Source: Candidatus Omnitrophota bacterium (GTDB lineage: Bacteria; Omnitrophota; Gorgyraeia; Zapsychrales; Zapsychraceae). Taken from it: DNA of 64,000 nt. Below are positions 29 through 55,231 of this stretch, piece after piece; positions within the stretch are counted from its first letter, which is position 1; each line of letters opens with the position of its first letter. The position numbers were made by a program, and so were the translations under genes. Under the pieces are notes generated by a model that did not search any database, had not been told where the DNA came from, and saw only the letters and a list, made by a program, of their open reading frames with translations. The stretch covers positions 55,051 through 119,050 of the forward strand of contig DATDQB010000017.1 of NCBI GenBank assembly GCA_035292445.1, written 5' to 3'.

Positions 29-3000
29 ATGGGGACCGACCCCGCCATGCTGGGGGAAGAGCAGGCGCCAGACACCAGACGCCAAACGCAAGACGATCGC
101 GACGAAGCGATGGCAACCGAAGATGAGGAAGGGCTAAAAAGTTTGATCCGTCAATTGGCGAGCGGTAATAACGTGGATCCAATCGGCGTCCGCAGGCCGG
201 CACCTGCGGGGCCCGTCATAGACATAGCTTCCGCAATGAAATACGACTTTGCTTCTGATGGCGCGGATAACAAGCTGAATAGATGGAATTTGCGGTTTGA
301 AAATTATGAAATCAAAAGCATCAACCTGACAGATGGCGTTTATTATGCGGAATTTCGTTCTTTAGGAAATGCTTTGGGCGCACCGCACATCAGGCATGGT
401 TTAATCAACTCTCGGCAGCTTGATCAGATCATAAGGACGTTAAACAAGATAAGCCCACTCAATTTTATTGAGTTTGAAGGTCTGTTCAGGTATTACAGCG
501 GCTTTCTTGCCCCGCTAGAGGTAAATGAGAGCGAAGACGCCGTATCTTTTAGCTTGAGATGGAGCGGCCGCTCGTTGGATGGATATAAAATTGATGCATC
601 TGAACTTAAGGAGCATCGAGAGGTCGGGTTGACGCTAACAACGCCCAGCGGTGAAAAATCGGTGTTTATGAAAACCTCTGATTTTCTTAATTGGGTTATC
701 GCTCTCCAGCATTTATCGGCAGAAGGCAGGGTGGAGGAATTCAAGGGGCTTTTTGACCGCGAAGATAACGGCGGAATGATGGGCTTTGATTATGACTATA
801 AACTCCTTGATTTTGTAAAGCGACCCCCGCCGGCTTCAACGCCCATTAAGCAACCAAGAACCCTAGAGCAATTATATGATATCATTGCGGGCGCTGAAGC
901 CGGTGCAGCGCTATCCTCCTATACGTTACGCACCTATGACCCTCATAAAAGCATAACCATTACGGTCCTTGCTTACTTTTCCGATGATATTTTTGTTATT
1001 GAGTATTCCAGACCGGAAGAGAGTGGCCACCCCGCCATCAAAAGGCGCGGGTTGCTTAGAAAATATGATCTTGATCAGATGATTTTCGATAAGTATGATT
1101 CCATCAAAACATATATGGACTCCTATGATGCGGAAAGGCTCCCGAGAGAAATGTTTTATGTAGAAAAAACGGCTGAAAAGCTGGAGAAAAATGCATCAAG
1201 CCAATATGAGATCACCCTGGGCAGCTTCCATTATTACCACAATACCAATAAAATCGAGGCCAGTTTTGATCCGGCCATCCCGGATGATGTATCTGTTGAA
1301 ATTTATGATTTAGAAAAAGGGGTTCGGGTCAAAAAATCCGGTACGATGGGCTTTTTTGATTTTTTTGAGATAATAAAAACGGTGTATTTCGGAAGCTATG
1401 GTAATTCGTTCTTAATGGGTGCTCTGTCTGACATGCTCTTACTGAATGATTCTGCGAGCATGATCGCTGATAAGGATTATGGCGCGCGCAAAACCCTCGT
1501 GGCCATACGTTACATCAGGTCATGGCTTAATTCTGATGTGTTTAAGGCGAGCGTCTATAAACCTAAAATGCTGCCGAGCGCGGTCGATCTAACCGTGCAG
1601 AATATAATTCGATTTGACCGATCATTGGATGATGAAATTCAAGAAATTGTTGCCGCTTTATTCGGGGAAATGGGCGCCGCCCTGGGATTAAAAATAGAGA
1701 TATCAAAACGGGAGAACGGCACCTATATACACATCCGCCGAAAGCACGTATTAGGAAAAATTAAAGCTAACGTAACCGAATCAATAGACGACTTTACAAA
1801 AGGAATCCGCCAAAGCATGGGAACATGGTTAAAAGATTTTGAATCTCAGCTGTGGATTGTCCACGCACGGGAAGACGGTTTTGAGGTCATGGACCGACAA
1901 TCCGGCCGCAAGCCAGACCCCGCCATGCTTGGGGAAGAAGAGACGCCAGACGCCAGACGCCAGACACCACATGAACGCGATGAGGCGATGTTAAATATAA
2001 CCTTGAGAGAAGAAATGACTGCGGGAGAACTTGCCGAAAGACTGGGCATTAATATTGAAAGCATAGTTCTTATCTATGGAGAAAATGAAGAGCTGCCTCT
2101 TTTTATTCACCCGACACAAAACCATCCCAATCTGCCTTTAGAAACACAACGCACATATTACATAGACACAAAGAATTTGGATTCTGGAGTTCTGGCCCGA
2201 CTTTTTAATGCGGATTTCATCGGTGGCGTTGGTATTTCAGACATTAAAGAACTGCCTGAAGAAGAAGAGCTTGAAATGCGTTTCAAGATGGCATCGCAAC
2301 AAGTTACGCAAGCTCAAAAAGATTTAGAAGAAGCTCAGCGATCCGCTGATCGCACTGGAAATTATTCGCTAGTTCGTTCTAAAGATAGACTGTTAGAGCT
2401 TGAATTAGCCAACATGGATCGTACGTTAAAAGAACTGCAAAAATTTCGTACGCGAAAGGAAGGTGGCCAAAAGAAAGCTGATGAGGCGATGATGGGGAAG
2501 GAAGAACCGCACATCGTAGATCGCACTTCGTACATCGAAAAAGATAAGGCAATGACAGCTGTTAAACTTAGAGGTTTTACACATTTGGAGCCAACTAGTG
2601 GACGCAGATTTAATGAGGCTGTCTTTGATCTGGAGGGGGTTAACGAACCTGAAACGAACAATACCCACAGAAGATACAGAGAAAATATCGAACAATTGTT
2701 ATCAGATCATGAAGAAATACTCAAAGAACAGGAAAAATTACTTGCCGAAATAGAATCCGCTCTTGACCAAGGAAAAACAGTGGCTATCGGTGTCGAAGAA
2801 GATAGTCAAGGAGTTCAAGAAATCCAACTTGATGCGAGTTTCATTTTAGATCAGATCGTTGAACTCATGCGCATGAGAGGTTTTACTGCCCCCGAAGAGA
2901 AAGCCAGACAGGTATATTTATTAGGAAACGGTGTGGCAAGTTATCTCGTAGCGCTTAAGAAAAATATCCATCTGTTTCCGCTTGAAAACCAAGAATTACG

Positions 3001-3673
3001 TCAACAATCGGGTTCGCTTGCTAGGGAATATGCTGAAATATCGGAAAAATTGAAACCTATATTAATGGGAATTGCTGAATCTGAATTCATTTTATTCGAT
3101 GACACGCTGTATGAAGTAATACTGTCAATCAATGACCCGGATGAGATCTATACAACAATCAACAAATCTGCCGATGCGCTACTAGCAAAATTCCTTGGCA
3201 CTGAACATGAAGCCGATATACGCAGAATGATCGCAATCGCCTCAAAATTCATTCAAAATGCGAGGGAAAGAGAGAAGCCGATGGCAGCTGCAATCAAGGA
3301 ACATGTTCGATCCTATCCGGATTATATTACATTTATTCTTGTTGGCTCCAGCCATGTGGCTGGCTTAAACAGACTTCTAAACAAAAAAGATCAAGAAGTT
3401 GGTGGTATCGATCTTAACCCGCAACTCTTGGACCTTCAGATCAAACGCGATGAAAAGGGAGTACCGCTTCCCGTCAACATGCAGCCCATTCATAATATTC
3501 ATATCGAAGGATTCCTGCCGATCATTATCAACATAACACCGATCAATGTGTCGTTGCCGGTGTATTTGGGATTGGAGGGAGATGGGGAGGATGACACACA
3601 ATTTGGGTTTCAGGATGAATATAAGGCGAGGGAACCGGAGAAAATAAGTTTATTGGATAATAATCTCCAATAA
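29..3673 (+). CDS. large hypothetical protein (1214 aa); the reading frame is open back to window position 2, so it may be 5'-partial
   Basis: Long ORF without Walker or HExxH motifs. An acidic linker motif DEAM../DPAMLGEE.. recurs three times (aa ~1-35, ~630-660, ~815-825). There is a coiled-coil-like segment around aa 760-810. The C-terminal ..FILVGSSHVAGL.. segment weakly resembles the GxxH motif of the Tiki/TraB/GumN superfamily. Confidence 0.5.
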   Translation: MGTDPAMLGEEQAPDTRRQTQDDRDEAMATEDEEGLKSLIRQLASGNNVDPIGVRRPAPAGPVIDIASAMKYDFASDGADNKLNRWNLRFENYEIKSINLTDGVYYAEFRSLGNALGAPHIRHGLINSRQLDQIIRTLNKISPLNFIEFEGLFRYYSGFLAPLEVNESEDAVSFSLRWSGRSLDGYKIDASELKEHREVGLTLTTPSGEKSVFMKTSDFLNWVIALQHLSAEGRVEEFKGLFDREDNGGMMGFDYDYKLLDFVKRPPPASTPIKQPRTLEQLYDIIAGAEAGAALSSYTLRTYDPHKSITITVLAYFSDDIFVIEYSRPEESGHPAIKRRGLLRKYDLDQMIFDKYDSIKTYMDSYDAERLPREMFYVEKTAEKLEKNASSQYEITLGSFHYYHNTNKIEASFDPAIPDDVSVEIYDLEKGVRVKKSGTMGFFDFFEIIKTVYFGSYGNSFLMGALSDMLLLNDSASMIADKDYGARKTLVAIRYIRSWLNSDVFKASVYKPKMLPSAVDLTVQNIIRFDRSLDDEIQEIVAALFGEMGAALGLKIEISKRENGTYIHIRRKHVLGKIKANVTESIDDFTKGIRQSMGTWLKDFESQLWIVHAREDGFEVMDRQSGRKPDPAMLGEEETPDARRQTPHERDEAMLNITLREEMTAGELAERLGINIESIVLIYGENEELPLFIHPTQNHPNLPLETQRTYYIDTKNLDSGVLARLFNADFIGGVGISDIKELPEEEELEMRFKMASQQVTQAQKDLEEAQRSADRTGNYSLVRSKDRLLELELANMDRTLKELQKFRTRKEGGQKKADEAMMGKEEPHIVDRTSYIEKDKAMTAVKLRGFTHLEPTSGRRFNEAVFDLEGVNEPETNNTHRRYRENIEQLLSDHEEILKEQEKLLAEIESALDQGKTVAIGVEEDSQGVQEIQLDASFILDQIVELMRMRGFTAPEEKARQVYLLGNGVASYLVALKKNIHLFPLENQELRQQSGSLAREYAEISEKLKPILMGIAESEFILFDDTLYEVILSINDPDEIYTTINKSADALLAKFLGTEHEADIRRMIAIASKFIQNAREREKPMAAAIKEHVRSYPDYITFILVGSSHVAGLNRLLNKKDQEVGGIDLNPQLLDLQIKRDEKGVPLPVNMQPIHNIHIEGFLPIIINITPINVSLPVYLGLEGDGEDDTQFGFQDEYKAREPEKISLLDNNLQ
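68..95 (+). repeat. heptanucleotide tandem repeat (CCAGACA/CCAGACG/CCAAACG/CAAGACG) inside the CDS
   Basis: Direct reading: four imperfect 7-nt units in tandem. Confidence 0.8.
1946..1966 (+). repeat. heptanucleotide tandem repeat (CCAGACG x2 + CCAGACA) inside the CDS; part of a ~50-nt intragenic direct repeat also seen at 36-110
   Basis: Direct reading. The unit is not a multiple of 3, so changing copy number by one unit frameshifts. Confidence 0.85.
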
Positions 3674-44075: not shown

Positions 44076-45644
44076 ATGGCCGATGTCAAGAAAAAACAAT
44101 TAGGCATCTTCTGGGATTATCAAGGTTTATATTTTGTGGAAACCGAACAAGCCCAGGCAAAAAAAATCATTTCCATTCCTATAGCGGCTGAAATTCTCAA
44201 GAAGGCCGAAAACAACCCCTTGTCGCCTGATGGATCAAAAGTCATTACCACCATCCAGGATATATTAAGAAAAAATAAAATGACCAACAACGTGGTCCAT
44301 TTGTCTTTACCTTCGCGTGATATCATTTTTCGTTCCTTCCTCATCCCCTGGATGCAATCCAAAGAAATCAAAAGCGTAGTCGAGTTTGAAGCGACCAAAT
44401 ATATCCCTTTTACGCTCAAAGAATTAGCCTATTCATATCACGCCATGAATTTGATGGAAGGGAGCGCCCGGCGGTTACGGGTTGTTTTTGTTGCTATTAA
44501 GAAAGACACCCTGAGCCGCTATACCAAGCTCCTGGACGAAGCCGCCTTAAATGTCCAATTGGCCGAGCCGGCCCCTTTAAGTTTGATCCGCAGCCTAGTC
44601 CACAAAGAACGCCTTCAAACCAATCAAACCACCGCCATCATCGATAAAAGGGAAAAGATCGGAAAAATTGTCATCGTACAGGGAAATACGCCTCTGTTTG
44701 TCCGCGAATTCCCTTTGATGATTTCTTCCAATCCGGCTCTTGACGCCAGTGTCGAGGCGGCGGAACTTCTGCGGCTAACCAATGAAGTGCGCATTTCTTT
44801 GGACTATTTTAACCGTCAGGAAAAAAGCGTTAAAGTGGAAAAAATCATCTTCTTAAGCCCTAATGAACAAAATGAATTTGCCAAAGCATTGGAAGAAGAT
44901 TTGGAGATGTCTATGGAGATTATCAGCTGTTCCTCCATCTTGAATAATGACGAAATCAAAGACACGCATTTTATTAACGCCTATGGGGCCGGTCTGAAAA
45001 ATGACGTGAACCTGGAGATTAACTTCGATCTGTCTAAGGATAAACCTCAAACAGTCAGCATTTCACGCCAAACGTTCCAAAAGAACTTCAACATTAAAGA
45101 AGTCCTCCCAACAGCATTCACTTGTTTGCTGATTTCTTTCCTGGCTATCGGTTCATCGAAATTCTTTATAAACAAACAAAAAAATGAGTTAACAAACTTA
45201 TATCAGAGACTTGGGCCCTCAAAAGATATTTCTATCGATATGTTGAATTCTGGTAATGATGGCCTCCAAAAAAAACTTAATGCTTATAAAAGCATTCGTT
45301 TGAAAAGTGACATCACTTTCTTCCTAGCCGCGATCGCTCAACTACTCCCCGAGGGGGCTTGGGTCAACGGCGTCAACTTTTCCATTCAAGATATTCCGCA
45401 ACCACCAAGCACCGACCCACAAACCGCTGCGCCAAAACCGGCGTTCAAAACGACCATGGAACTTACGGGCTTGGCCTATTCGCCACAAAAGAAAGATCAA
45501 TTTCAACAAATCAACAGCCTTCTTCAAGCAATAAAGGACAACGAAAGATTTAATGAATATTTCCCAGATATTAAACTTGAAGATGTTCGTTCACAATTTG
45601 TCGAAGGATATGAAGTCACGGCATTTATAATAAGGTTTCAATAA
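44076..45644 (+). CDS. type IV pilus assembly PilM-PilN fusion protein
   Basis: N-terminal ~330 aa is an actin-like PilM. The C-terminal ~190 aa has a TM helix plus a PilN-like periplasmic domain. Confidence 0.65.
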   Translation: MADVKKKQLGIFWDYQGLYFVETEQAQAKKIISIPIAAEILKKAENNPLSPDGSKVITTIQDILRKNKMTNNVVHLSLPSRDIIFRSFLIPWMQSKEIKSVVEFEATKYIPFTLKELAYSYHAMNLMEGSARRLRVVFVAIKKDTLSRYTKLLDEAALNVQLAEPAPLSLIRSLVHKERLQTNQTTAIIDKREKIGKIVIVQGNTPLFVREFPLMISSNPALDASVEAAELLRLTNEVRISLDYFNRQEKSVKVEKIIFLSPNEQNEFAKALEEDLEMSMEIISCSSILNNDEIKDTHFINAYGAGLKNDVNLEINFDLSKDKPQTVSISRQTFQKNFNIKEVLPTAFTCLLISFLAIGSSKFFINKQKNELTNLYQRLGPSKDISIDMLNSGNDGLQKKLNAYKSIRLKSDITFFLAAIAQLLPEGAWVNGVNFSIQDIPQPPSTDPQTAAPKPAFKTTMELTGLAYSPQKKDQFQQINSLLQAIKDNERFNEYFPDIKLEDVRSQFVEGYEVTAFIIRFQ

Positions 45645-48313: not shown

Positions 48314-50083
48314 ATGCCTCGCTTAAAACTTGGTGAAATCTTAATCAAGCATGGCCTCATCAGCGAAGCCCAGCTCAAACAGGCCATGGAAACGCAGCAA
48401 AAAGAAAAAGGCCGCATTGGCGAGATCCTGATTAAAATGGGGGCCGTCAGCGAAGAAGACATGACCGCGACCCTGGGAGAGCAGCTGGGCCTTCCGTACT
48501 ATTCCTACACGGCCACGGAAAAAGCCGAACTCCTTAAACCCGCCTCCAATCAAAATCTTGAAAAAATAGTACCGGTTGACTTTGCGAAAAAAAACAATGT
48601 TTTGCCCCTGTCAAAAAATATAAACAATCTGATATGCGCCGTTGCGGATCCTTTAGATCTACTGCTGCAAGATAATTTGCGCCGCATCGTGGGCTGTGAC
48701 ATCCAATTGGTCATCGCCACCGAAACGAACATTCAAAAAGCCATTACCGATTTCTATTTTTCTGACAAACACCGCGACGACGGAAAAAAATCGTCCATGC
48801 TCAACCAGGCCGTTGAAAGCACTTACGCCCCCCAAAAATTTGAAGCTTCAGACACCGCAGCCGCCCCTAGAGAATCCGAAAATGTCAGCGATAAATCCGA
48901 TCTGAGCTTAGATAAACTCATCGAAAAAGCGGGCGAAGCCCCTGTCATCAAATTGGTCGACCTTATTATCCGTCAGGCGATTGATGAACGTGCCAGTGAT
49001 ATTCATATCGAACCCTTCGATAATAAAATCATCCTTCGTTACCGTATTGACGGCAACCTTTACACCATTCCTCCGCCGGCGCCCCATCTGCACTTGGCCA
49101 TCGTTTCCCGTATCAAAATTTTGGCCAAACTGGACATTGCGGAAAAACGTCTTCCGCAAGACGGGGCCATTTCGGTAAAACTGGAAGACCGCGTGGTTGA
49201 CATCCGTATTTCTACCGTGCCGACCGTCTGGGGAGAAAAAGTCGTCATGCGCCTTCTTGATAAAGGCGCCGTGAAATTGGAACTTTTTGGGTTGGGATTC
49301 GATCAAACACAAATCGATTGCCTGAAAAAAGCCCTTGCAAGACCTTATGGGCTCTTTTTCGTCACCGGCCCTACCGGCAGCGGTAAATCAACAACCCTTT
49401 ATTCCTGCTTAAATGAGACCATTGACCCCCGCGTCAACGTTGTCACGGTTGAAGACCCGGTCGAATATAAAATCGAAGGGATCAATCAAGTCGCCGTCAA
49501 GCCGGAAATTGGCCTGACATTTGCAACCGCCTTAAAGGCCTTCTTGCGCCAGGACCCTGACATCATTATGGTCGGCGAGGTGCGTGATTTGGAAACCGCT
49601 TCCATCTGCGTACGGGCTGCTTTAACAGGCCACTTTGTCTTAAGCACCCTGCACACCAATGACGCGGCCTCGGCCATCACGCGGCTTATTGATATCGGCA
49701 TTCCCAGCTATCTGTTGACCCCATCGCTGGTGCTCATCCTGGCCCAACGGCTCGCCCGGCGCCTTTGCCCGAAATGCAAAGAAGCCTACGAGCCAGACCC
49801 GGCCCAGCATGGCGGCATCAAATTCAAAAGTGATCTCATCTACCGGGCCAAGGGCTGCGAAGCTTGCAACAATTCGGGGTATAAAGGGCGCATCGTGGTG
49901 GCGGAAACATTGCTTGTTGATGATGAGATGAAAAAAATAATCAGCAAAGGGGCCACGGATCAAGAGATTAAAACTGCGGCCCGTAAAAATGGTATGACGA
50001 CCATATTTGATTCAGGCATCCGCCTCGTTGAACAGGGGTTTACCAGTTTTGAAGAAGTCGCAAGAGTCAGTGTAGACCAATAA
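48314..50083 (+). CDS. pilB: type IV pilus assembly ATPase (GspE family)
   Basis: Duplicated N-terminal T2SSE_N domain, Walker A GPTGSGKST, Asp and His boxes and a tetracysteine motif. Confidence 0.9.
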   Translation: MPRLKLGEILIKHGLISEAQLKQAMETQQKEKGRIGEILIKMGAVSEEDMTATLGEQLGLPYYSYTATEKAELLKPASNQNLEKIVPVDFAKKNNVLPLSKNINNLICAVADPLDLLLQDNLRRIVGCDIQLVIATETNIQKAITDFYFSDKHRDDGKKSSMLNQAVESTYAPQKFEASDTAAAPRESENVSDKSDLSLDKLIEKAGEAPVIKLVDLIIRQAIDERASDIHIEPFDNKIILRYRIDGNLYTIPPPAPHLHLAIVSRIKILAKLDIAEKRLPQDGAISVKLEDRVVDIRISTVPTVWGEKVVMRLLDKGAVKLELFGLGFDQTQIDCLKKALARPYGLFFVTGPTGSGKSTTLYSCLNETIDPRVNVVTVEDPVEYKIEGINQVAVKPEIGLTFATALKAFLRQDPDIIMVGEVRDLETASICVRAALTGHFVLSTLHTNDAASAITRLIDIGIPSYLLTPSLVLILAQRLARRLCPKCKEAYEPDPAQHGGIKFKSDLIYRAKGCEACNNSGYKGRIVVAETLLVDDEMKKIISKGATDQEIKTAARKNGMTTIFDSGIRLVEQGFTSFEEVARVSVDQ

Positions 50084-50105: not shown

Positions 50106-51347
50106 TTGCCCAAATTTTCCTATACAGCAAAAGACGCGTCCGGTAAAACCATCAAAGACGTCATGGATGCCCCTAGTCAAAACACAGTGGTGGAGCGCCT
50201 GCAAAAAAAAGAGCTCTTTGTTATCAATATTAATGAGCTGTCTTTCTCTTCTCCGGCGGCCAAAAGAGCCCTTGCCAAAAAGAAAAAAACAAAACGCTTC
50301 ACTCATAAAAAGGTCAAACTCGGCGACTTGCTCACCTTTGCGCGCCAATTGGCCACCATGCTGGAAGCCGGTGTTTCCATGATCCGAAGCCTGGATGTTA
50401 TCTGTTCCCAAATTCAAAGCGAACAATTCCATAAGGTCGCAAGAAAAATACGTGATGATGTGGAACAAGGGGGCGCTTTAAGTAACGCCTTGTCCAATCA
50501 TCCCAAGGTTTTTAACCAATTCTGGACTAGTTTGATCGAGGTTGGAGAGGCCTCAGGAACGATTCCCGTAGTTTTAAATAAGCTGACTTTCTATCTGGAA
50601 CAACAAGCAAAATTCAGATCAACCATCATTTCGGGGTTGATCTATCCGGCCATTCTCTTTACTGTTTCCATGGGAGCGGTCGCCTTTTTTGCCTTATTCG
50701 TAGGGCCGCGGTTTGAAAGTATTTTTGAATCCATGGACGTGGACTTGCCTGTAATCACCGTTATTTTACTGGCGGTCTTCAAATTCATTAAAAGCAACAT
50801 TTTGTTCTTAATTGCCGGCGTTGCTTTATCTATTTTTCTATTTCGTAAATACATAAAAACATACCATGGCCGACTGCAATGGGAGAAATTCATGTTTGCT
50901 TTGCCCCAAGCCGGGGAAGTGTACCGTTTGATTATCGTTGAACGCTTCGCATCACAAATGGCCATTTTGATTGACTCCGGAGTTCCCATTCTTTATGCTT
51001 TGGACATTACAGAGCGGCTCGTTGACAACAACACCTGTGCACTGATTGTTAATGATATCAAGGAAGCGGTCAGGGAAGGGGTTCTTTTGGCCGATCCTAT
51101 GGAAAAAAGCGACTTCTTTCCGGCCATGGCTGTTCAAATGGTGCAGGTGGGGGAGGAAACAGGAGAGCTCAGTAAGATGTTAAAGCATGTTTCCGCTTTT
51201 TACCAGGATCACATCGAAACATTCATGTCCCGTTTTGCAACGATTGTCGAACCTTTTATGCTGGTTTTTATGGGGGCGATCATCGGCACCATCGTCTTGG
51301 CTATGTTCCTTCCCATGTTTAACATTGCTCAGCTGGGAGGGGGATAA
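50106..51347 (+). CDS. pilC: type IV pilus inner-membrane platform protein (GspF family)
   Basis: Two T2SSF domains, 413 aa. Confidence 0.9.
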   Translation: MPKFSYTAKDASGKTIKDVMDAPSQNTVVERLQKKELFVININELSFSSPAAKRALAKKKKTKRFTHKKVKLGDLLTFARQLATMLEAGVSMIRSLDVICSQIQSEQFHKVARKIRDDVEQGGALSNALSNHPKVFNQFWTSLIEVGEASGTIPVVLNKLTFYLEQQAKFRSTIISGLIYPAILFTVSMGAVAFFALFVGPRFESIFESMDVDLPVITVILLAVFKFIKSNILFLIAGVALSIFLFRKYIKTYHGRLQWEKFMFALPQAGEVYRLIIVERFASQMAILIDSGVPILYALDITERLVDNNTCALIVNDIKEAVREGVLLADPMEKSDFFPAMAVQMVQVGEETGELSKMLKHVSAFYQDHIETFMSRFATIVEPFMLVFMGAIIGTIVLAMFLPMFNIAQLGGG

Positions 51348-51452
51348 GGCTAAAAACTCCCTCTAGCGAAAATACTTCAAAAAATACTATTCAAACCACT
51401 CGATTTTCGCTAAATTTATTATATAATAAAGGCGTAGATAGAGCTTGGCTGT

Positions 51453-51483
51453 TTGACATGGGGCACCCTAATATGCTATACAT
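51453..51483 (+). promoter_or_regulatory. sigma70-type promoter TTGACA-N18-TATACA driving the riboswitch-pilin transcript
   Basis: Direct reading. Confidence 0.45.
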
Positions 51484-51494
51484 TATGTAGGATA

Positions 51495-51600
51495 GGTTAT
51501 TGTCCAAGGGTAAACCATTCGAAAGAGTGGGGCACAAAGCTAAAGGGCCCGGGAGTCCAAGTCAGATATTGGATGGGGGGGCAGCCAGCTACCAATAATC
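51495..51600 (+). ncRNA. cyclic-di-GMP-I (GEMM) riboswitch aptamer
   Basis: AGGGUAAACCAUUCGAAAGAGUGGGGCACAAAGCU matches the Vc2 GEMM-I core AGGGCAAACCAUUCGAAAGAGUGGGACGCAAAGCC at 31 of 35 positions. It has a GNRA (GAAA) loop in P2, and a P1 stem ggttattg / caataatc closes the domain. Confidence 0.8.
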
Positions 51601-51611
51601 GAACCAAAATG

Positions 51612-51643
51612 CCTATTCTACGAATGTGGAATAGGTTTTTTAT
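51612..51643 (+). terminator. intrinsic terminator (expression platform of the riboswitch): cctattc-N10-gaatagg + TTTTTT
   Basis: Direct reading; lies 45 nt upstream of the pilin SD. Confidence 0.55.
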
Positions 51644-51689
51644 TAGGGTGAATTTAGTGTAAAACTTTAAATAAAAGGAGTTAGCAAAC

Positions 51690-52106
51690 ATGAAACTCAA
51701 TCGCAGAAGTGGCTTTACCTTACTTGAAATTATCATTGTTATCATTATTGTAGGTGTTCTTGCTTCTTTGGCTTTACCTCGATTCTTCAGTACAGTCGAA
51801 TTCTCCAGATCAACAGAAGCACTTACATCCATGTCCACCGTTCGTCAATCCATTGAACGATGCTACATAGCATCAAACAATAACTATTCCTCATGCATCA
51901 TTGGTGCTATTGACGTTGAAAACCCAGGAATCTCACCAGGGGCTCACTTTACCTACGTGGTCACCGTAGCGCCTACTACTTTCCGAATTGTGGCCCAAAG
52001 AAACGCTGTTAATGCTGGGGACGGCACATCAACAATTAGCCTTGGAGGCAGTTCGGGTGCTGGTGTTGCTAGAAGCGGTAGTGGTGTATTCGTTGGTATC
52101 AAATAA
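51690..52106 (+). CDS. type IVa major pilin (prepilin N-methylation site G|FTLLE)
   Basis: MKLNRRSGFTLLEIIIVIIIVGVLASLALP..; strong SD aaaaggag. Confidence 0.85.
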   Translation: MKLNRRSGFTLLEIIIVIIIVGVLASLALPRFFSTVEFSRSTEALTSMSTVRQSIERCYIASNNNYSSCIIGAIDVENPGISPGAHFTYVVTVAPTTFRIVAQRNAVNAGDGTSTISLGGSSGAGVARSGSGVFVGIK

Positions 52107-52133
52107 CCCGTTCTTTACAACGGCTTAAGTTTA

Positions 52134-52176
52134 CAGAAACATCGAAGCTTTGACTTTCAAGGCTTCGATGTTTCTG
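52134..52176 (+). terminator. perfect 15-bp hairpin (cagaaacatcgaagc / gcttcgatgtttctg) after the first pilin gene; no U-tract
   Basis: Direct reading. Confidence 0.5.
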
Positions 52177-52208
52177 TGTAAGGCTACGAAAGAAGGGGTT
52201 GATGAACC

Positions 52209-52640
52209 GTGATTTTTTCCCATTTTAAAAAGAAATTCGCTCCCCAAGGCTTTACCTTAATAGAAGTAGCCGTCACCATCATACTTATAGGGGTGGTCGT
52301 GTCACTGGCCTTACCGCAATTCTCCATCACGACCAAACGCTCCCGCTCTTCCGAAGGCGTCCAAATCCTCTCTGCCATATGGAGAGCCCAGAACTTATAC
52401 ACTTTTGAAAATGGTTCGGCAGCTGGCAACTTAACCGATCTCGACATCGAAATTCCATCGCCTCTGACTAATTTCAACACACCTGTTTTATATACAACCG
52501 ATGGACAAACCGCTTATATTGTCGACAATAATAGCGATTATCGCTTGTACATCGATACTACCGGTACCATTACCTGTGATGACACCCCGGGCTTGGCCGG
52601 CATATGTGCGAAGATGGCTTTTGCCGCCTACCCGTACTAG
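52209..52640 (+). CDS. type IV pilin-like protein 2
   Basis: ..QGFTLIEVAVTIILIGVVVSLALP.. Confidence 0.75.
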   Translation: MIFSHFKKKFAPQGFTLIEVAVTIILIGVVVSLALPQFSITTKRSRSSEGVQILSAIWRAQNLYTFENGSAAGNLTDLDIEIPSPLTNFNTPVLYTTDGQTAYIVDNNSDYRLYIDTTGTITCDDTPGLAGICAKMAFAAYPY

Positions 52641-52656: not shown

Positions 52657-53043
52657 ATGAATTGGATAGTTCGTAAAAAAGGGTTTAGCTTGATAGAAGT
52701 GATAACGGCCCTTCTCGTTGTTGCCGCTATTACCGGTATTGCCCTTCCTAGATTTACGCTGCAGCTGGAACGAACAAAAAGCGCGGAAGCCGTTCATATC
52801 CTGGAATCCATTTACAACGCCCAACGGGCCTACTTTTATGAATATCAGGCCTATGCGAGCGCGCTCTCCGCCTTGGATGTCACCGTGCCGGCGCCGGAGG
52901 GTTTCAACGCCCCAACAGCCGCTTCGAGCGATCCCATTGCCAGCATCGCGAGCAAAAGCGGAAATTATACGTTAAGAATAGATAGCGCCGGGGCCTTGAG
53001 CTGTGTCGGTACCGGTACCATCTGCACCCAATTGGGATATTAA
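52657..53043 (+). CDS. type IV pilin-like protein 3
   Basis: ..KGFSLIEVITALLVVAAITGIALP... Start is at MNWIV; the upstream part of the track ORF overlaps pilin 2. Confidence 0.75.
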   Translation: MNWIVRKKGFSLIEVITALLVVAAITGIALPRFTLQLERTKSAEAVHILESIYNAQRAYFYEYQAYASALSALDVTVPAPEGFNAPTAASSDPIASIASKSGNYTLRIDSAGALSCVGTGTICTQLGY

Positions 53044-53058
53044 AATGAAGGAGAAACG

Positions 53059-53469
53059 ATGAGATCAAGAACCGGTTTTACTTTAGTAGAATTAATGGTC
53101 GTGGTCGTCATTATCGGTATCCTGGCCAGCTTTGCGCTGCCCCAATATCAAAAGGCGGTGCGGAAAGCTCATGAACGCGACGCGGTTATCCAACTCACCT
53201 CGTTGCATGCCGCCAATATCATGTATGAAGCAAAACAAGACGCCTATTTGGCAGGGAACCCTTTAAACTTAGCTCAAATCAATAGCGGCCTTAACCTGAA
53301 TATCATAGCCAATGATATGACGTACTCCTATACCAGCACGGTCGCAACAGCCTACACGGCAACGGCCGCATGGACTGATTTTACTGTTCGAGTTAATCAG
53401 ACGCCTATTGCTGCTGGCACCAACCCTTGCTGTTCAGCCGGTACTTGTCCGACTTTACCGGCCTGTTAA
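53059..53469 (+). CDS. type IV pilin-like protein 4
   Basis: MRSRTGFTLVELMVVVVIIGILASFALP.. Confidence 0.75.
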   Translation: MRSRTGFTLVELMVVVVIIGILASFALPQYQKAVRKAHERDAVIQLTSLHAANIMYEAKQDAYLAGNPLNLAQINSGLNLNIIANDMTYSYTSTVATAYTATAAWTDFTVRVNQTPIAAGTNPCCSAGTCPTLPAC

Positions 53470-53478
53470 AGACGCGAT

Positions 53479-53823
53479 ATGCTAAAAATTCTTAAAAAAG
53501 AGGGGTTCGCATCTATCGTGGAAGTGATCGTGGCTTCCATTATCTTTCTGGTGACAGCCTTCGGGATATTTGCCGCTATCTCCATGCTACGGCCCCAAGG
53601 AACGACGTCCATCAAACGGCTCGAAGCCGTTTTGGCCGGGAAACGCGTCATCGATGAAATAAGGGCGGATGTCTACGGCAACCTTTGGGCCAGCGGTAGC
53701 CCTTTAGACACTGGGACGCTTTACACTCAAACCATCGGCTCTGTTACGGTCAATTATTATACCGCGGATGTCCCGAACCTTCCTTTAAGGAAATTGTATA
53801 TGAATGTTTCCTATCCCGATTAA
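53479..53823 (+). CDS. minor pseudopilin (PilV/GspI-like)
   Basis: ..EGFASIVEVIVASIIFLV.. Confidence 0.6.
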   Translation: MLKILKKEGFASIVEVIVASIIFLVTAFGIFAAISMLRPQGTTSIKRLEAVLAGKRVIDEIRADVYGNLWASGSPLDTGTLYTQTIGSVTVNYYTADVPNLPLRKLYMNVSYPD

Positions 53824-53828
53824 GGGTT

Positions 53829-54488
53829 ATGGCAAATATGATCAAGATGACAACACAAAAAGGGTTAACGTTGACGGAACTGCTGGTGGCGTCTTTTTTA
53901 ATGGGCATCGTGATGGTCGGGATTGCCGGCTTTAGCGTAACGATCAAACGCATGCAGGATACAACGGATAAGCAGGCGATTTTGGCCATTCAAACGATAG
54001 CCGCCATGACCCATATGGAAAGGAATATTTCAAGGACCATCGGGGGTCAAAGCGATCAGGGTTATGCCTCCGGTAATGCGGGCACGCCAAACCGTGCTTA
54101 TTGGTCTTTCCGGCAGGACCCTTCGAACACGCCATACAATACTTCCGATGATACCTGGCGGATCTATTTCCGCAGAACGACCGGAGGCGCCCCAACATTC
54201 GAATTAAGAACCTGTGTCCAGCCGGCAGGGGCCGGAGCCGCTCAAGGGCCCATCCCAAGTTTCCTAGGAAGTGACCCGTGCGGCCAGCCAAACATCCAAA
54301 GAGTTATCAATAAAATTCAAAGTTTTTCCATTGTCCAAACAGTCAATAATTCGCCTTCGACTCTGGACTTTTATTATACAGCAACCATCACCGCCCGCTT
54401 CAACCCTTCGGCAGCGGCTGAGCCTATTGATAATCCTGATTATACCTTAAGCACCCGCGTTCACGCGCCGGGCCACAGCTGGAATTAA
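53829..54488 (+). CDS. minor pilin PilW-like
   Basis: ..KGLTLTELLVASFLMGIVMVGIAG.. Confidence 0.6.
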   Translation: MANMIKMTTQKGLTLTELLVASFLMGIVMVGIAGFSVTIKRMQDTTDKQAILAIQTIAAMTHMERNISRTIGGQSDQGYASGNAGTPNRAYWSFRQDPSNTPYNTSDDTWRIYFRRTTGGAPTFELRTCVQPAGAGAAQGPIPSFLGSDPCGQPNIQRVINKIQSFSIVQTVNNSPSTLDFYYTATITARFNPSAAAEPIDNPDYTLSTRVHAPGHSWN

Positions 54489-55231
54489 TGCACCGATTCT
54501 ATTGCCCCAACGCTGATTTCTCTTCAAAAGAGATCACCCTTACCGACAAGGAAGAAATACACCATTTACGTGACGTTTTGCGCTTAAAACCGCCTGGTTT
54601 GATCCAATTATTCGATGGCAAGGGGAAAGAGGCCACAGCAACCATCTGTTCGATCTCTCCCCAGAAAGTTGTCGTAGCCGTTGAAAAGCTTACCCATGCA
54701 CCTGTGCAAACGTTAACGCTGACCCTCGCCTGCGCGATCCCCAAAAAAAGCAAATTCGAGACCATTATTGAAAAGGCGACGGAGTTGGGGGTTGATGAGA
54801 TCATTCCGCTTAAAACAAAAAGGACCGAAGTTGATCTAAAGGGAGAGAGGCTTCATAAAAAACTGGCGCGTTTTCAAACGGTCGCCGTCAACGCGGCCAA
54901 ACAATGCCAGAGGGAGAGGCTTCCTATCATTCACCCAACGATGGAATTTCAATCGGCCGTTGATAAATTGACAGCCGATTCGTTTATCGTTATCCCCGCC
55001 CTCATCAAAAAGCGTAAAAAATTATTCGAGGCCCTGCCGGCCGTGAAAGACAACCTGAAAATAGCCATCTTGATCGGCCCCGAGGGGGATTTTACCCCGG
55101 AGGAATATTCTTATGCCCTTGAAAAGGGGGCGCATCCCGTGTCTTTAGGGAAAACAGTTCTGAAAGTCGAAACAGCGGCTCTGTCCGCTTTGGCCGGCAT
55201 CCAGCTTTTCTATCAGCATGAACCTTCTTAA
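54488..55231 (+). CDS. rsmE: 16S rRNA (uracil1498-N3)-methyltransferase
   Basis: 247 aa with a PUA-like N-terminus and a SPOUT C-terminus. Confidence 0.85.
   Translation: MHRFYCPNADFSSKEITLTDKEEIHHLRDVLRLKPPGLIQLFDGKGKEATATICSISPQKVVVAVEKLTHAPVQTLTLTLACAIPKKSKFETIIEKATELGVDEIIPLKTKRTEVDLKGERLHKKLARFQTVAVNAAKQCQRERLPIIHPTMEFQSAVDKLTADSFIVIPALIKKRKKLFEALPAVKDNLKIAILIGPEGDFTPEEYSYALEKGAHPVSLGKTVLKVETAALSALAGIQLFYQHEPS

Follow-up and report, generated by a model that had tools for sequence, protein, structure and literature searches.

The 64,000-nucleotide stretch of DNA analysed here (referred to as the window; positions 55,051 to 119,050 of contig DATDQB010000017.1), which is placed in Candidatus Omnitrophota by its PilC homologues and the genome titles, carries a cluster of type IV pilus genes in which a gap of 342 nucleotides (nt; 51348-51689) separates pilC from the first pilin gene. 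This gap raises the question of whether the pilin is expressed under the control of c-di-GMP (bis-(3'-5')-cyclic dimeric guanosine monophosphate) and, if so, in which direction. The region very probably contains a real c-di-GMP riboswitch of the GEMM-I class that acts through a terminator upstream of the first pilin gene. This riboswitch is probably, though not securely, an OFF switch in the manner of Cd1 from Clostridioides difficile, such that rising c-di-GMP would lower pilin transcription. A preliminary description of the region held that ON and OFF could not be told apart from the sequence; the architecture of the leader, together with 16 related leaders, nevertheless gives a usable, if indecisive, lean towards OFF.

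When the entire 64-kb window was compared with all 4227 families of Rfam at gathering thresholds, one match emerged, to RF01051 (c-di-GMP-I) at 51499-51596 on the forward strand; it scores 53.2 bits, where the gathering score is 35, with an E value of 1.4e-7 for the whole window. The match is far stronger than chance would give and spans the full model (positions 1-87 of 87), and no other model of the clan reported the window. The preliminary description had proposed a GEMM-I aptamer here and had named a search with RF01051 as its test, the lack of a match counting against it; the match is significant, so that this ground for doubt falls away, and covariation in relatives also upholds the proposal. 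With its closing helix P1, the complete aptamer comprises 106 nt (51495-51600, forward strand). P1 pairs GGTTATTG (51495-51502) with CAATAATC (51593-51600), as had been described, and is present in the minimum-energy fold. The 35-nt core with a GAAA loop that had been likened to Vc2, AGGGTAAACCATTCGAAAGAGTGGGGCACAAAGCT, is located at 51507-51541, and 31 of its 35 positions are identical to the Vc2 core sequence.

P2 is the hairpin CCAUUC-GAAA-GAGUGG (51515-51530, forward strand, from the cmscan alignment), beneath which lies a helix of 2 base pairs (bp), G51510-C51535 and U51511-A51534. The first hairpin therefore shows the layout reported for the family, with 2 bp, a 3-nt internal loop (AAA), 6 bp (CCAUUC/GAGUGG), a GNRA loop (GAAA) and an AAA joint (51536-51538) (PMC1950547). 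P3 (51538-51590, forward strand) has the base AGCU/AGCU, formed by 51538-51541 and 51587-51590, and contains a 30-nt insertion relative to the Rfam consensus. Vc2 carries a tetraloop receptor in P3, and a conserved tetraloop-receptor contact had been anticipated here; no canonical 11-nt receptor (CCUAAG...UAUGG) is evident in P3 of the window, which offers only a GGGA/GGGG internal loop. Docking of the loop in a tetraloop receptor is the usual state of GEMM RNAs with a GAAA loop, but it is found in about half of GEMM RNAs overall and is not obligatory (PMC1950547).

The bases of the putative binding pocket are G51509, A51536 and C51592, equivalent to G20, A47 and C92 of Vc2. The equivalents of positions 92 and 47 were assigned from the Rfam alignment together with the structure of Vc2; counting along the Vc2 sequence did not hold in the 3' half of the aptamer and was not used for the C92 equivalent. 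The G20 position of Vc2 sets selectivity between cyclic dinucleotides (PMC9262584), and the canonical G, A and C set makes c-di-GMP the ligand to be expected. In the minimum-energy fold of 51485-51650 (-54.1 kcal/mol), P1, P2 and P3 form together with the terminator; the z-score of this fold is -3.58, and none of 200 shuffled sequences folded as well.

Just upstream of the aptamer is a sigma-70-type promoter (51453-51482, forward strand), consisting of a -35 box TTGACA (51453-51458), an 18-nt spacer and a -10 box TATACA (51477-51482), with an extended -10 TG at 51474-51475. A generic promoter scan missed it because the -10 box lacks the final T. The preliminary description had recognized the same promoter, and it is kept in all 17 related leaders: TTGACA is found in 14 of 17, a 17-nt spacer in 13 of 17 and the extended -10 TG in 16 of 17, with TATAC(A/C) as the -10 box. 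Beyond the -10 box, position +6 is a pyrimidine (16/17), +7 is A (15/17) and +8 is G (16/17). The conserved GUAGA, which might be taken for part of an outer helix of leader and terminator 5' arm, is better explained as a start-site context with a pyrimidine at -1 and a purine at +1, and transcription probably starts at A51489, as judged from the sequence.

A 10-nt linker separates the end of P1 (51600) from the stem of a predicted intrinsic terminator (51611-51642, forward strand). It comprises a 5' arm GCCUAUUCUAC (51611-51621), the loop GAAU, a 3' arm GUGGAAUAGGU (51626-51636) and a U-run. The terminator scan gave a hairpin at 51611-51636 whose 11-bp stem includes four G-C pairs and closes a 4-nt loop; TTTTTATT comes next, so that the hairpin and U-run proposed earlier as a terminator platform are present, with the GC-containing stem-loop and U-run characteristic of intrinsic terminators. 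The ribosome-binding site of the pilin gene lies 45 nt past the terminator.

Support for this arrangement comes from 16 further distinct Omnitrophota leaders (from loci designated L and a number), located 3' of pilC or of one intervening gene, which were gathered through PilC-profile scans of genomes and metagenomes (at least about 20 close relatives) and from individually retrieved PilC homologues. These leaders share a layout of promoter, GEMM-I aptamer, 10-25-nt linker, terminator and orthologous pilin gene; the L166 leader ends before its terminator. Covariation was assessed in an alignment of the ten leaders without large insertions. Taken together, aptamer and terminator have 14 pairs out of 30 that changed on both sides, with 95.6% of cells paired; none of 500 shuffles attained any of the measures, and shifted registers are 34-46% paired. 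Compensatory pairs are distributed over P1 (3/7), P2 (3/6, with 100% of cells paired), the base of P3 (2/4) and the terminator (6/11, with 96% of cells paired). Five contigs with an identical pilin have leaders that are 100% identical and thus contribute no covariation.

The direction of switching is suggested by the relationship between aptamer and terminator, which share no strand and are both present in the minimum-energy fold of the window. In 13 of the 16 species of the comparative set, the full-length fold contains five or six of the six P2 pairs plus a formed terminator. Cd1, an OFF switch (Cdi-1-3, 5' of flgB in C. difficile), likewise has an aptamer and a terminator that can exist side by side, in competition with an antiterminator; the two folds are mutually exclusive in the ON switch upstream of pilM (PMC9262584). 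The coexisting, non-overlapping elements found here therefore point to the OFF topology of Cd1 and not the ON topology of pilM. The ligand-free antiterminator of Cd1 unfolds part of the binding pocket (PMC9262584; PMC6200980), and the class-I riboswitches of C. difficile act as OFF switches (PMC6200980). Cd1 differs from the element in the window in its association with flagellar genes, in its Firmicute host and in its far longer linker (aptamer completed at about nt 87, antiterminator folding possible from nt 134; PMC9262584), as against 10 nt here. A further difference lies in the candidate partners of the terminator 5' arm, which in the window are either the 3' strand of P2 with the adjoining junction or the 5' leader.

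Evidence for such a partner comes from the pattern of change in the terminator itself. The relatives show almost no change in CCUAUUC, the core of the 5' arm, while P2, P3, linkers and loops vary freely, and the 3' arm shows changes from A to G opposite U residues of the 5' arm. An invariant 5' arm combined with A-to-G changes in the 3' arm suggests that the 5' arm has a second partner. In the species of the window, the leader segment GUAGGAUAGGU (51487-51497, forward strand) is complementary to the whole 5' arm and is a candidate antiterminator strand. The pairing amounts to 11 bp, or 9 bp with a start at A51489, and its GGU is shared with the base of P1; the duplex has an energy of -14.2 to -16.4 kcal/mol, compared with -14.3 to -14.8 kcal/mol for the terminator stem, and none of 500 shuffled leaders equalled it. 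This pairing is strong only in the window: the closest relative, L165, lacks it (-3.7 kcal/mol), as do most others, and with a start at the conserved A the helix drops to about 4 bp in relatives.

The second candidate partner is the 3' strand of P2 with the adjoining junction (51525-51534 in the window, forward strand). The 5' arm, often together with a preceding UGUG, complements the P2 3' strand as well as GGCACA, the pocket junction, and the duplex formed by linker and 5' arm with this region has an energy of -9.7 kcal/mol in the window and a mean of -10.9 kcal/mol across 16 species. The 5' arm can pair with the P2 3' strand and its following G in all 70 cells (100%; 10 of 10 aligned species), compared with 37-64% in shifted registers. 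The divergent terminator arms of L089, L091 and L165 each fit their own P2 best; comparison of native with swapped-species duplex energies discriminates poorly, because both partners are conserved.

Ensemble models of transcripts ending before the 3' arm are consistent with either candidate partner. In unconstrained ensembles for 16 species, 34-92% of the 5' arm is paired to upstream partners; in the window, 67-85% is paired to 51487-51497. If transcription starts at the conserved A, the 5' arm pairs mainly with the P2 3' strand in 11 of 16 species; in the window, its main partner is the leader. When P1 is enforced, sequestration of the 5' arm is lower or level in 16 of 16 species, and in the window with a start at A51489 it falls from 0.69 to 0.03. 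Two other arrangements fared less well: a classical antiterminator pairing the P1 3' strand with the 5' arm was rejected, only 4 A-U pairs being possible by eye, and an outer helix of leader and 5' arm stacked on P1 is less favoured, as it is strong only in the window and is not promoted by closure of P1.

As an OFF switch, the element could work as follows. Transcription would begin at the conserved extended -10 promoter, probably at A51489. The aptamer (51495-51600), with P1, P2 and P3, would be made first, and the terminator (51611-51642) would follow after 10 nt. Without ligand, an upstream purine-rich strand would capture the freshly made terminator 5' arm and allow read-through into the pilin gene; the capturing strand would be the leader and the base of P1 (51489-51497) in the species of the window, and the P2 3' strand with the GGCACA pocket junction in most relatives. 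With c-di-GMP bound, P1, P2 and the pocket would be locked, and the free 5' arm would pair with the 3' arm, so that transcription would stop near 51642.

The pilus assembly machinery may itself respond to the same ligand. The PilB-type assembly ATPase encoded at 48314-50083 (forward strand; Pfam MshEN and T2SSE) has an N-terminal MshEN domain, for which the published motif is RLGxx(L/V/I)(L/V/I)xxG(L/V/I)(L/V/I)xxxxLxxxLxxQ, occurring in tandem with a separation of 5 residues (PMC5013675). In PilB, two 24-residue motifs with a 5-residue spacer occupy residues 5-57 (nt 48326-48484): motif I is KLGEILIKHGLISEAQLKQAMETQ (residues 5-28), the spacer is QKEKG and motif II is RIGEILIKMGAVSEEDMTATLGEQ (residues 34-57). 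Both fit the relaxed pattern of the authors of the motif; from the strict form, motif I deviates by R to K and L to M, and motif II by L to I, L to A and L to M. PilB also aligns with solved MshEN domains (5htl, E value 4.9e-13; 6f8l, E value 4.2e-27). On this basis, c-di-GMP probably acts on the pilus at the level of protein as well as RNA.

Several points weigh against an OFF switch, and the chief among them is that a c-di-GMP-binding motif on PilB would fit an ON riboswitch more naturally. The founding member of the MshEN family is MshE, the ATPase of the Vibrio cholerae MSHA pilus, in which motif mutants reduce biofilm formation (PMC5013675), and the C. difficile riboswitch of the pilin gene pilA1 is an ON switch (PMC6200980). 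At equilibrium, the terminator is stronger than the proposed antiterminators; the switch must therefore be kinetic, which a nested thermodynamic model cannot settle. An antiterminator that invades P2 must open a stable GNRA-capped hairpin, and the helix between the 5' arm and P2 shows one compensatory change, a result at least as good being given by 151 of 500 shuffles. In the window, the modelled main partner, the leader, leaves most of the aptamer intact, and its pairing appears ligand-responsive only if transcription starts near A51489; moving the start two bases upstream leaves P1 with a small modelled effect (0.85 to 0.72). Part of the drop in sequestration on enforcing P1 also arises by construction of the model.

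These points bear most directly on the possibility of an ON switch, in which c-di-GMP would close P1 and hold the leader (51487-51494) near the 5' arm, so that an outer helix would stack on P1 and the terminator would be blocked. Pilin would then be made at high c-di-GMP, in step with activation of PilB via MshEN, and pilin induction together with a c-di-GMP-binding ATPase would form a coherent circuit. The leader of the window does abut P1 and can pair with the whole 5' arm (11 bp, 0/500 shuffles as above), and the C. difficile pilA1 and Geobacter pilM riboswitches are both ON switches. We nevertheless consider it doubtful that the element is of this type, as the mutual exclusion of aptamer and terminator through a shared strand that defines such switches is not seen here. 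Moreover, the outer helix is not conserved, being missing in L165 and most others; it competes with three basal pairs of P1, and enforcing P1 raised the pairing of leader and 5' arm appreciably in none of the 16 species. Two rivals of a different kind concern the ligand and the terminator. Sensing of another cyclic dinucleotide, such as 3'3'-cyclic GMP-AMP (3'3'-cGAMP) in the manner of GEMM-Ib, would have precedent, since the pocket is altered in some GEMM-I relatives and the initial annotation of the cGAMP class was as c-di-GMP-sensing (PMC9262584); pocket bases are altered in L168, L175, L091 and L174, and several relatives prefer Rfam variant models. In the window, however, the pocket is the canonical c-di-GMP set of G, A and C, and the hallmark of GEMM-Ib, an adenine at the equivalent of Vc2 G20, is replaced by G51509. 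RF01051 alone of its clan reports the window at gathering thresholds, and the c-di-GMP-specific MshEN motif in the neighbouring PilB suggests that the organism uses c-di-GMP, which leaves another ligand highly improbable.

It is also improbable that the hairpin and U-run are a constitutive terminator of the pilMNOPQBC operon, or a palindromic DNA operator, with the aptamer acting otherwise or persisting as a relic. This explanation draws on the prediction of no other terminator after pilC, on a stem that is unusually invariant and palindromic, like a protein-binding site, and on antiterminator evidence that is suggestive rather than conclusive. Against it, a conserved promoter between pilC and the aptamer places the hairpin inside the pilin leader, and aptamer, 10-25-nt linker and terminator occur in fixed order in 16 species, with covariation in both structures; a relic would not retain canonical pocket bases and compensatory pairs.

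If the OFF reading is preferred, a wider and more tentative proposal can be built on it, in which a clade-wide OFF switch on the major pilin, with a terminator arm that mimics P2, is combined with control of the pilus at two levels. The U-rich 5' arm might imitate the P2 5' strand and pair with every P2 variant of the clade by means of G-U wobbles, so that the ligand-free antiterminator would invade P2 and the pocket junction and not P1. Control by c-di-GMP at the RNA and protein levels could then be opposite in sign, and a GEMM-I-family riboswitch before a pilin gene might also have arisen or been kept in Actinomycetota. Taken as a whole, this combination is possible but unlikely to hold in every part.

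Comparison with characterized systems shows which features are shared. Vc2 (5' of tfoY/VC1722 in V. cholerae) resembles the element in the 31 of 35 identical core positions, including the CCAUUC-GAAA-GAGUGG P2, and in its pocket bases, but it is a translational riboswitch (PMC9262584), whereas the window has an intrinsic terminator and a P3 that is 30 nt longer. The pilM riboswitch of Geobacter metallireducens (GEMM-Ib) has a GEMM-type aptamer, controls termination and is associated with type IV pilus genes (PMC9262584); unlike the element here, which has G at position 20 and no overlap, it senses cGAMP, is an ON switch, has a terminator that overlaps the aptamer and precedes assembly genes rather than the pilin gene. 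GEMM RNAs have been linked with pilM, pilO, pilQ and pulF since their first description (PMC1950547). Control of a major pilin by a c-di-GMP riboswitch is likewise already established for Cdi-2-4, a class-II element 5' of pilA1 in C. difficile, which shares with the window a location in the 5' untranslated region and, on the reading proposed here, control of transcriptional read-through; in C. difficile this read-through leads into the pilus genes (PMC6200980). Cdi-2-4 differs in its unrelated class-II fold and in being an ON switch, while the element in the window belongs to class I and is probably an OFF switch.

No description of the Omnitrophota element came up in full-text searches on c-di-GMP riboswitches and type IV pili or on Omnitrophota and type IV pili. 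The element is a further example of a well-known regulator and leaves knowledge of the riboswitch class unchanged; the more interesting points are the possibly unusual antiterminator, the insertions in the aptamer and the dual control of RNA and protein. We know of no cultured model for the phylum Omnitrophota, and the element provides a concrete, testable regulatory link for it. Pilus production in these Omnitrophota appears to be wired to c-di-GMP twice, through a riboswitch on the pilin mRNA and through MshEN on the assembly ATPase. A class-I c-di-GMP riboswitch located immediately before the major pilin is a design that recurs in Omnitrophota and Actinomycetota; earlier documentation of such a placement came mainly from a C. 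difficile riboswitch of the unrelated class II. In addition, the 17 related leaders, with their invariant terminator arm, large aptamer insertions and some variable pocket bases, provide material on the evolution of expression platforms and aptamers.

The aptamer insertions are found in several close relatives, in which one or two extra hairpins lie inside the GEMM-I aptamer (L165, 3870-4030; L168, 3881-4060; L166, 3840-3966; L005, 5485-5600; L171, 5712-5865). They are situated between the CAAAGCUA junction and P3 (L165 and L168), between P2 and the ACAAAGC junction (L166/L167 and L005) or, in L171, after P3 and ahead of the P1 3' strand. These large insertions bring the Rfam scores to or below the threshold (31-40 bits), and the closest relatives were missed at gathering thresholds but recovered at 31-32 bits in a permissive scan. 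The pocket differs in L168, L175 and L091, where the equivalent of position 92, a base that should pair with a guanine of the ligand, is U and not C, and in L174, where U replaces G at position 20; these leaders may be natural variants in specificity. For several relatives, the best-scoring Rfam models are the variants c-di-GMP-I-GGC or c-di-GMP-I-UAU. Three relatives contain a second conserved element between terminator and pilin start codon, ..CGCGATATATAGCGGATGC.GA..TAACCTGA.GAA.. (L007, 6185-6240; L172, 4105-4150; L175, 4085-4130), which is absent from the window, where the leader after the terminator is much shorter. The contigs of L166, L167 and L169 stop inside or just past the riboswitch leader and do not reach the pilin gene; the assemblies could have been broken at this point by hypervariability of pilin genes between strains.

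In two relatives, the riboswitch and pilin are parted from pilC, in L171 (3745-5469) by a gene for a 574-residue TPR protein and in L007 (5228-5950) by other sequence measuring about 0.7 kb, which indicates that this module travels with the pilin and not with pilC. Among Actinomycetota/Thermoleophilia pilus loci, a GEMM-I or c-di-GMP-I-GGC riboswitch was found in five (L033, 5933-6007; L043, 8409-8486; L055, 6130-6204; L080, 6143-6224; L082, 6181-6260), and it is located directly 5' of the pilin gene in four. The pilins encoded behind these riboswitches read ..KGFTLIELL..; the L082 contig ends before a readable gene. In L055 and L080, an open reading frame (ORF) of 246 residues lies between pilC and the riboswitch and looks sigma-factor-like on inspection of its sequence alone.

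Within the window, the first type IV pilin gene (51690-52106, forward strand; 138 residues, with ATG at 51690) is preceded by the Shine-Dalgarno sequence AAGGAG (51675-51680, forward strand). Its product begins MKLNRRSG|FTLLEIIIVIIIVGVLASLALP, a class III signal peptide that ends in Gly and is followed by a hydrophobic helix with Glu at position 5; together with a Pfam N_methyl match (E value 4.1e-07), this identifies it as a type IV pilin. It is probably the major pilin, being the first of six pilin-like genes and having a long hairpin behind it. The preliminary description had the riboswitch controlling the major pilin and possibly three downstream paralogs: the riboswitch does precede the first pilin gene under its own promoter, and 'major' is a reasonable inference, while the pilin-like genes that follow number five and not three. 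These five (52209-52640, 52657-53043, 53059-53469, 53479-53823 and 53829-54488, all on the forward strand) are tightly packed and were compiled from the ORFs of the window and gene calls from an identical contig. Pfam N_methyl was reported in three of the four that were scanned; 52657-53043, outside the Pfam scan, and 53479-53823, with no Pfam hit, are pilin-like only by their signal-peptide-like N-terminal sequence. The stop codon of the first pilin gene is immediately followed by an inverted repeat (ACAGAAACATCGAAGC...GCTTCGATGTTTCTGT; 52132-52179, forward strand) that is perfect over about 22 bp and lacks a U-run. It may stabilize the 3' end of a monocistronic pilin mRNA or act as a partial barrier to read-through into the minor pilin genes.

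Upstream of the riboswitch, the cluster reads PilM-like gene, pilO, a short ORF, pilQ (secretin), the PilB-type ATPase gene and pilC. The PilM-like gene (44076-45644) encodes 522 residues, of which the Pfam PilM match covers only 29-211, and the protein may be a PilM-PilN fusion or have a divergent C-terminal half. The platform protein gene pilC (50106-51347, forward strand; Pfam T2SSF) lies directly 5' of the riboswitch region, and the terminator scan predicted no terminator between its stop codon and the riboswitch promoter. No GGDEF, EAL or PilZ domains were found in the 20 further ORFs of the window that were scanned, and no pilT or prepilin peptidase gene was seen within the annotated parts of the window. 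An ORF of 1214 residues at 29-3673 gave no Pfam match at E <= 0.001. The six pilin-like genes are followed by rsmE, a TPR/glycosyltransferase gene, recA, recX and alaS, and elsewhere the window consists of ordinary chromosomal sequence, with genes such as uvrA, exbBD, ispG, ispH and fabF. The pilin protein and its leader recur in identical form on several metagenome contigs from groundwater and sediment.

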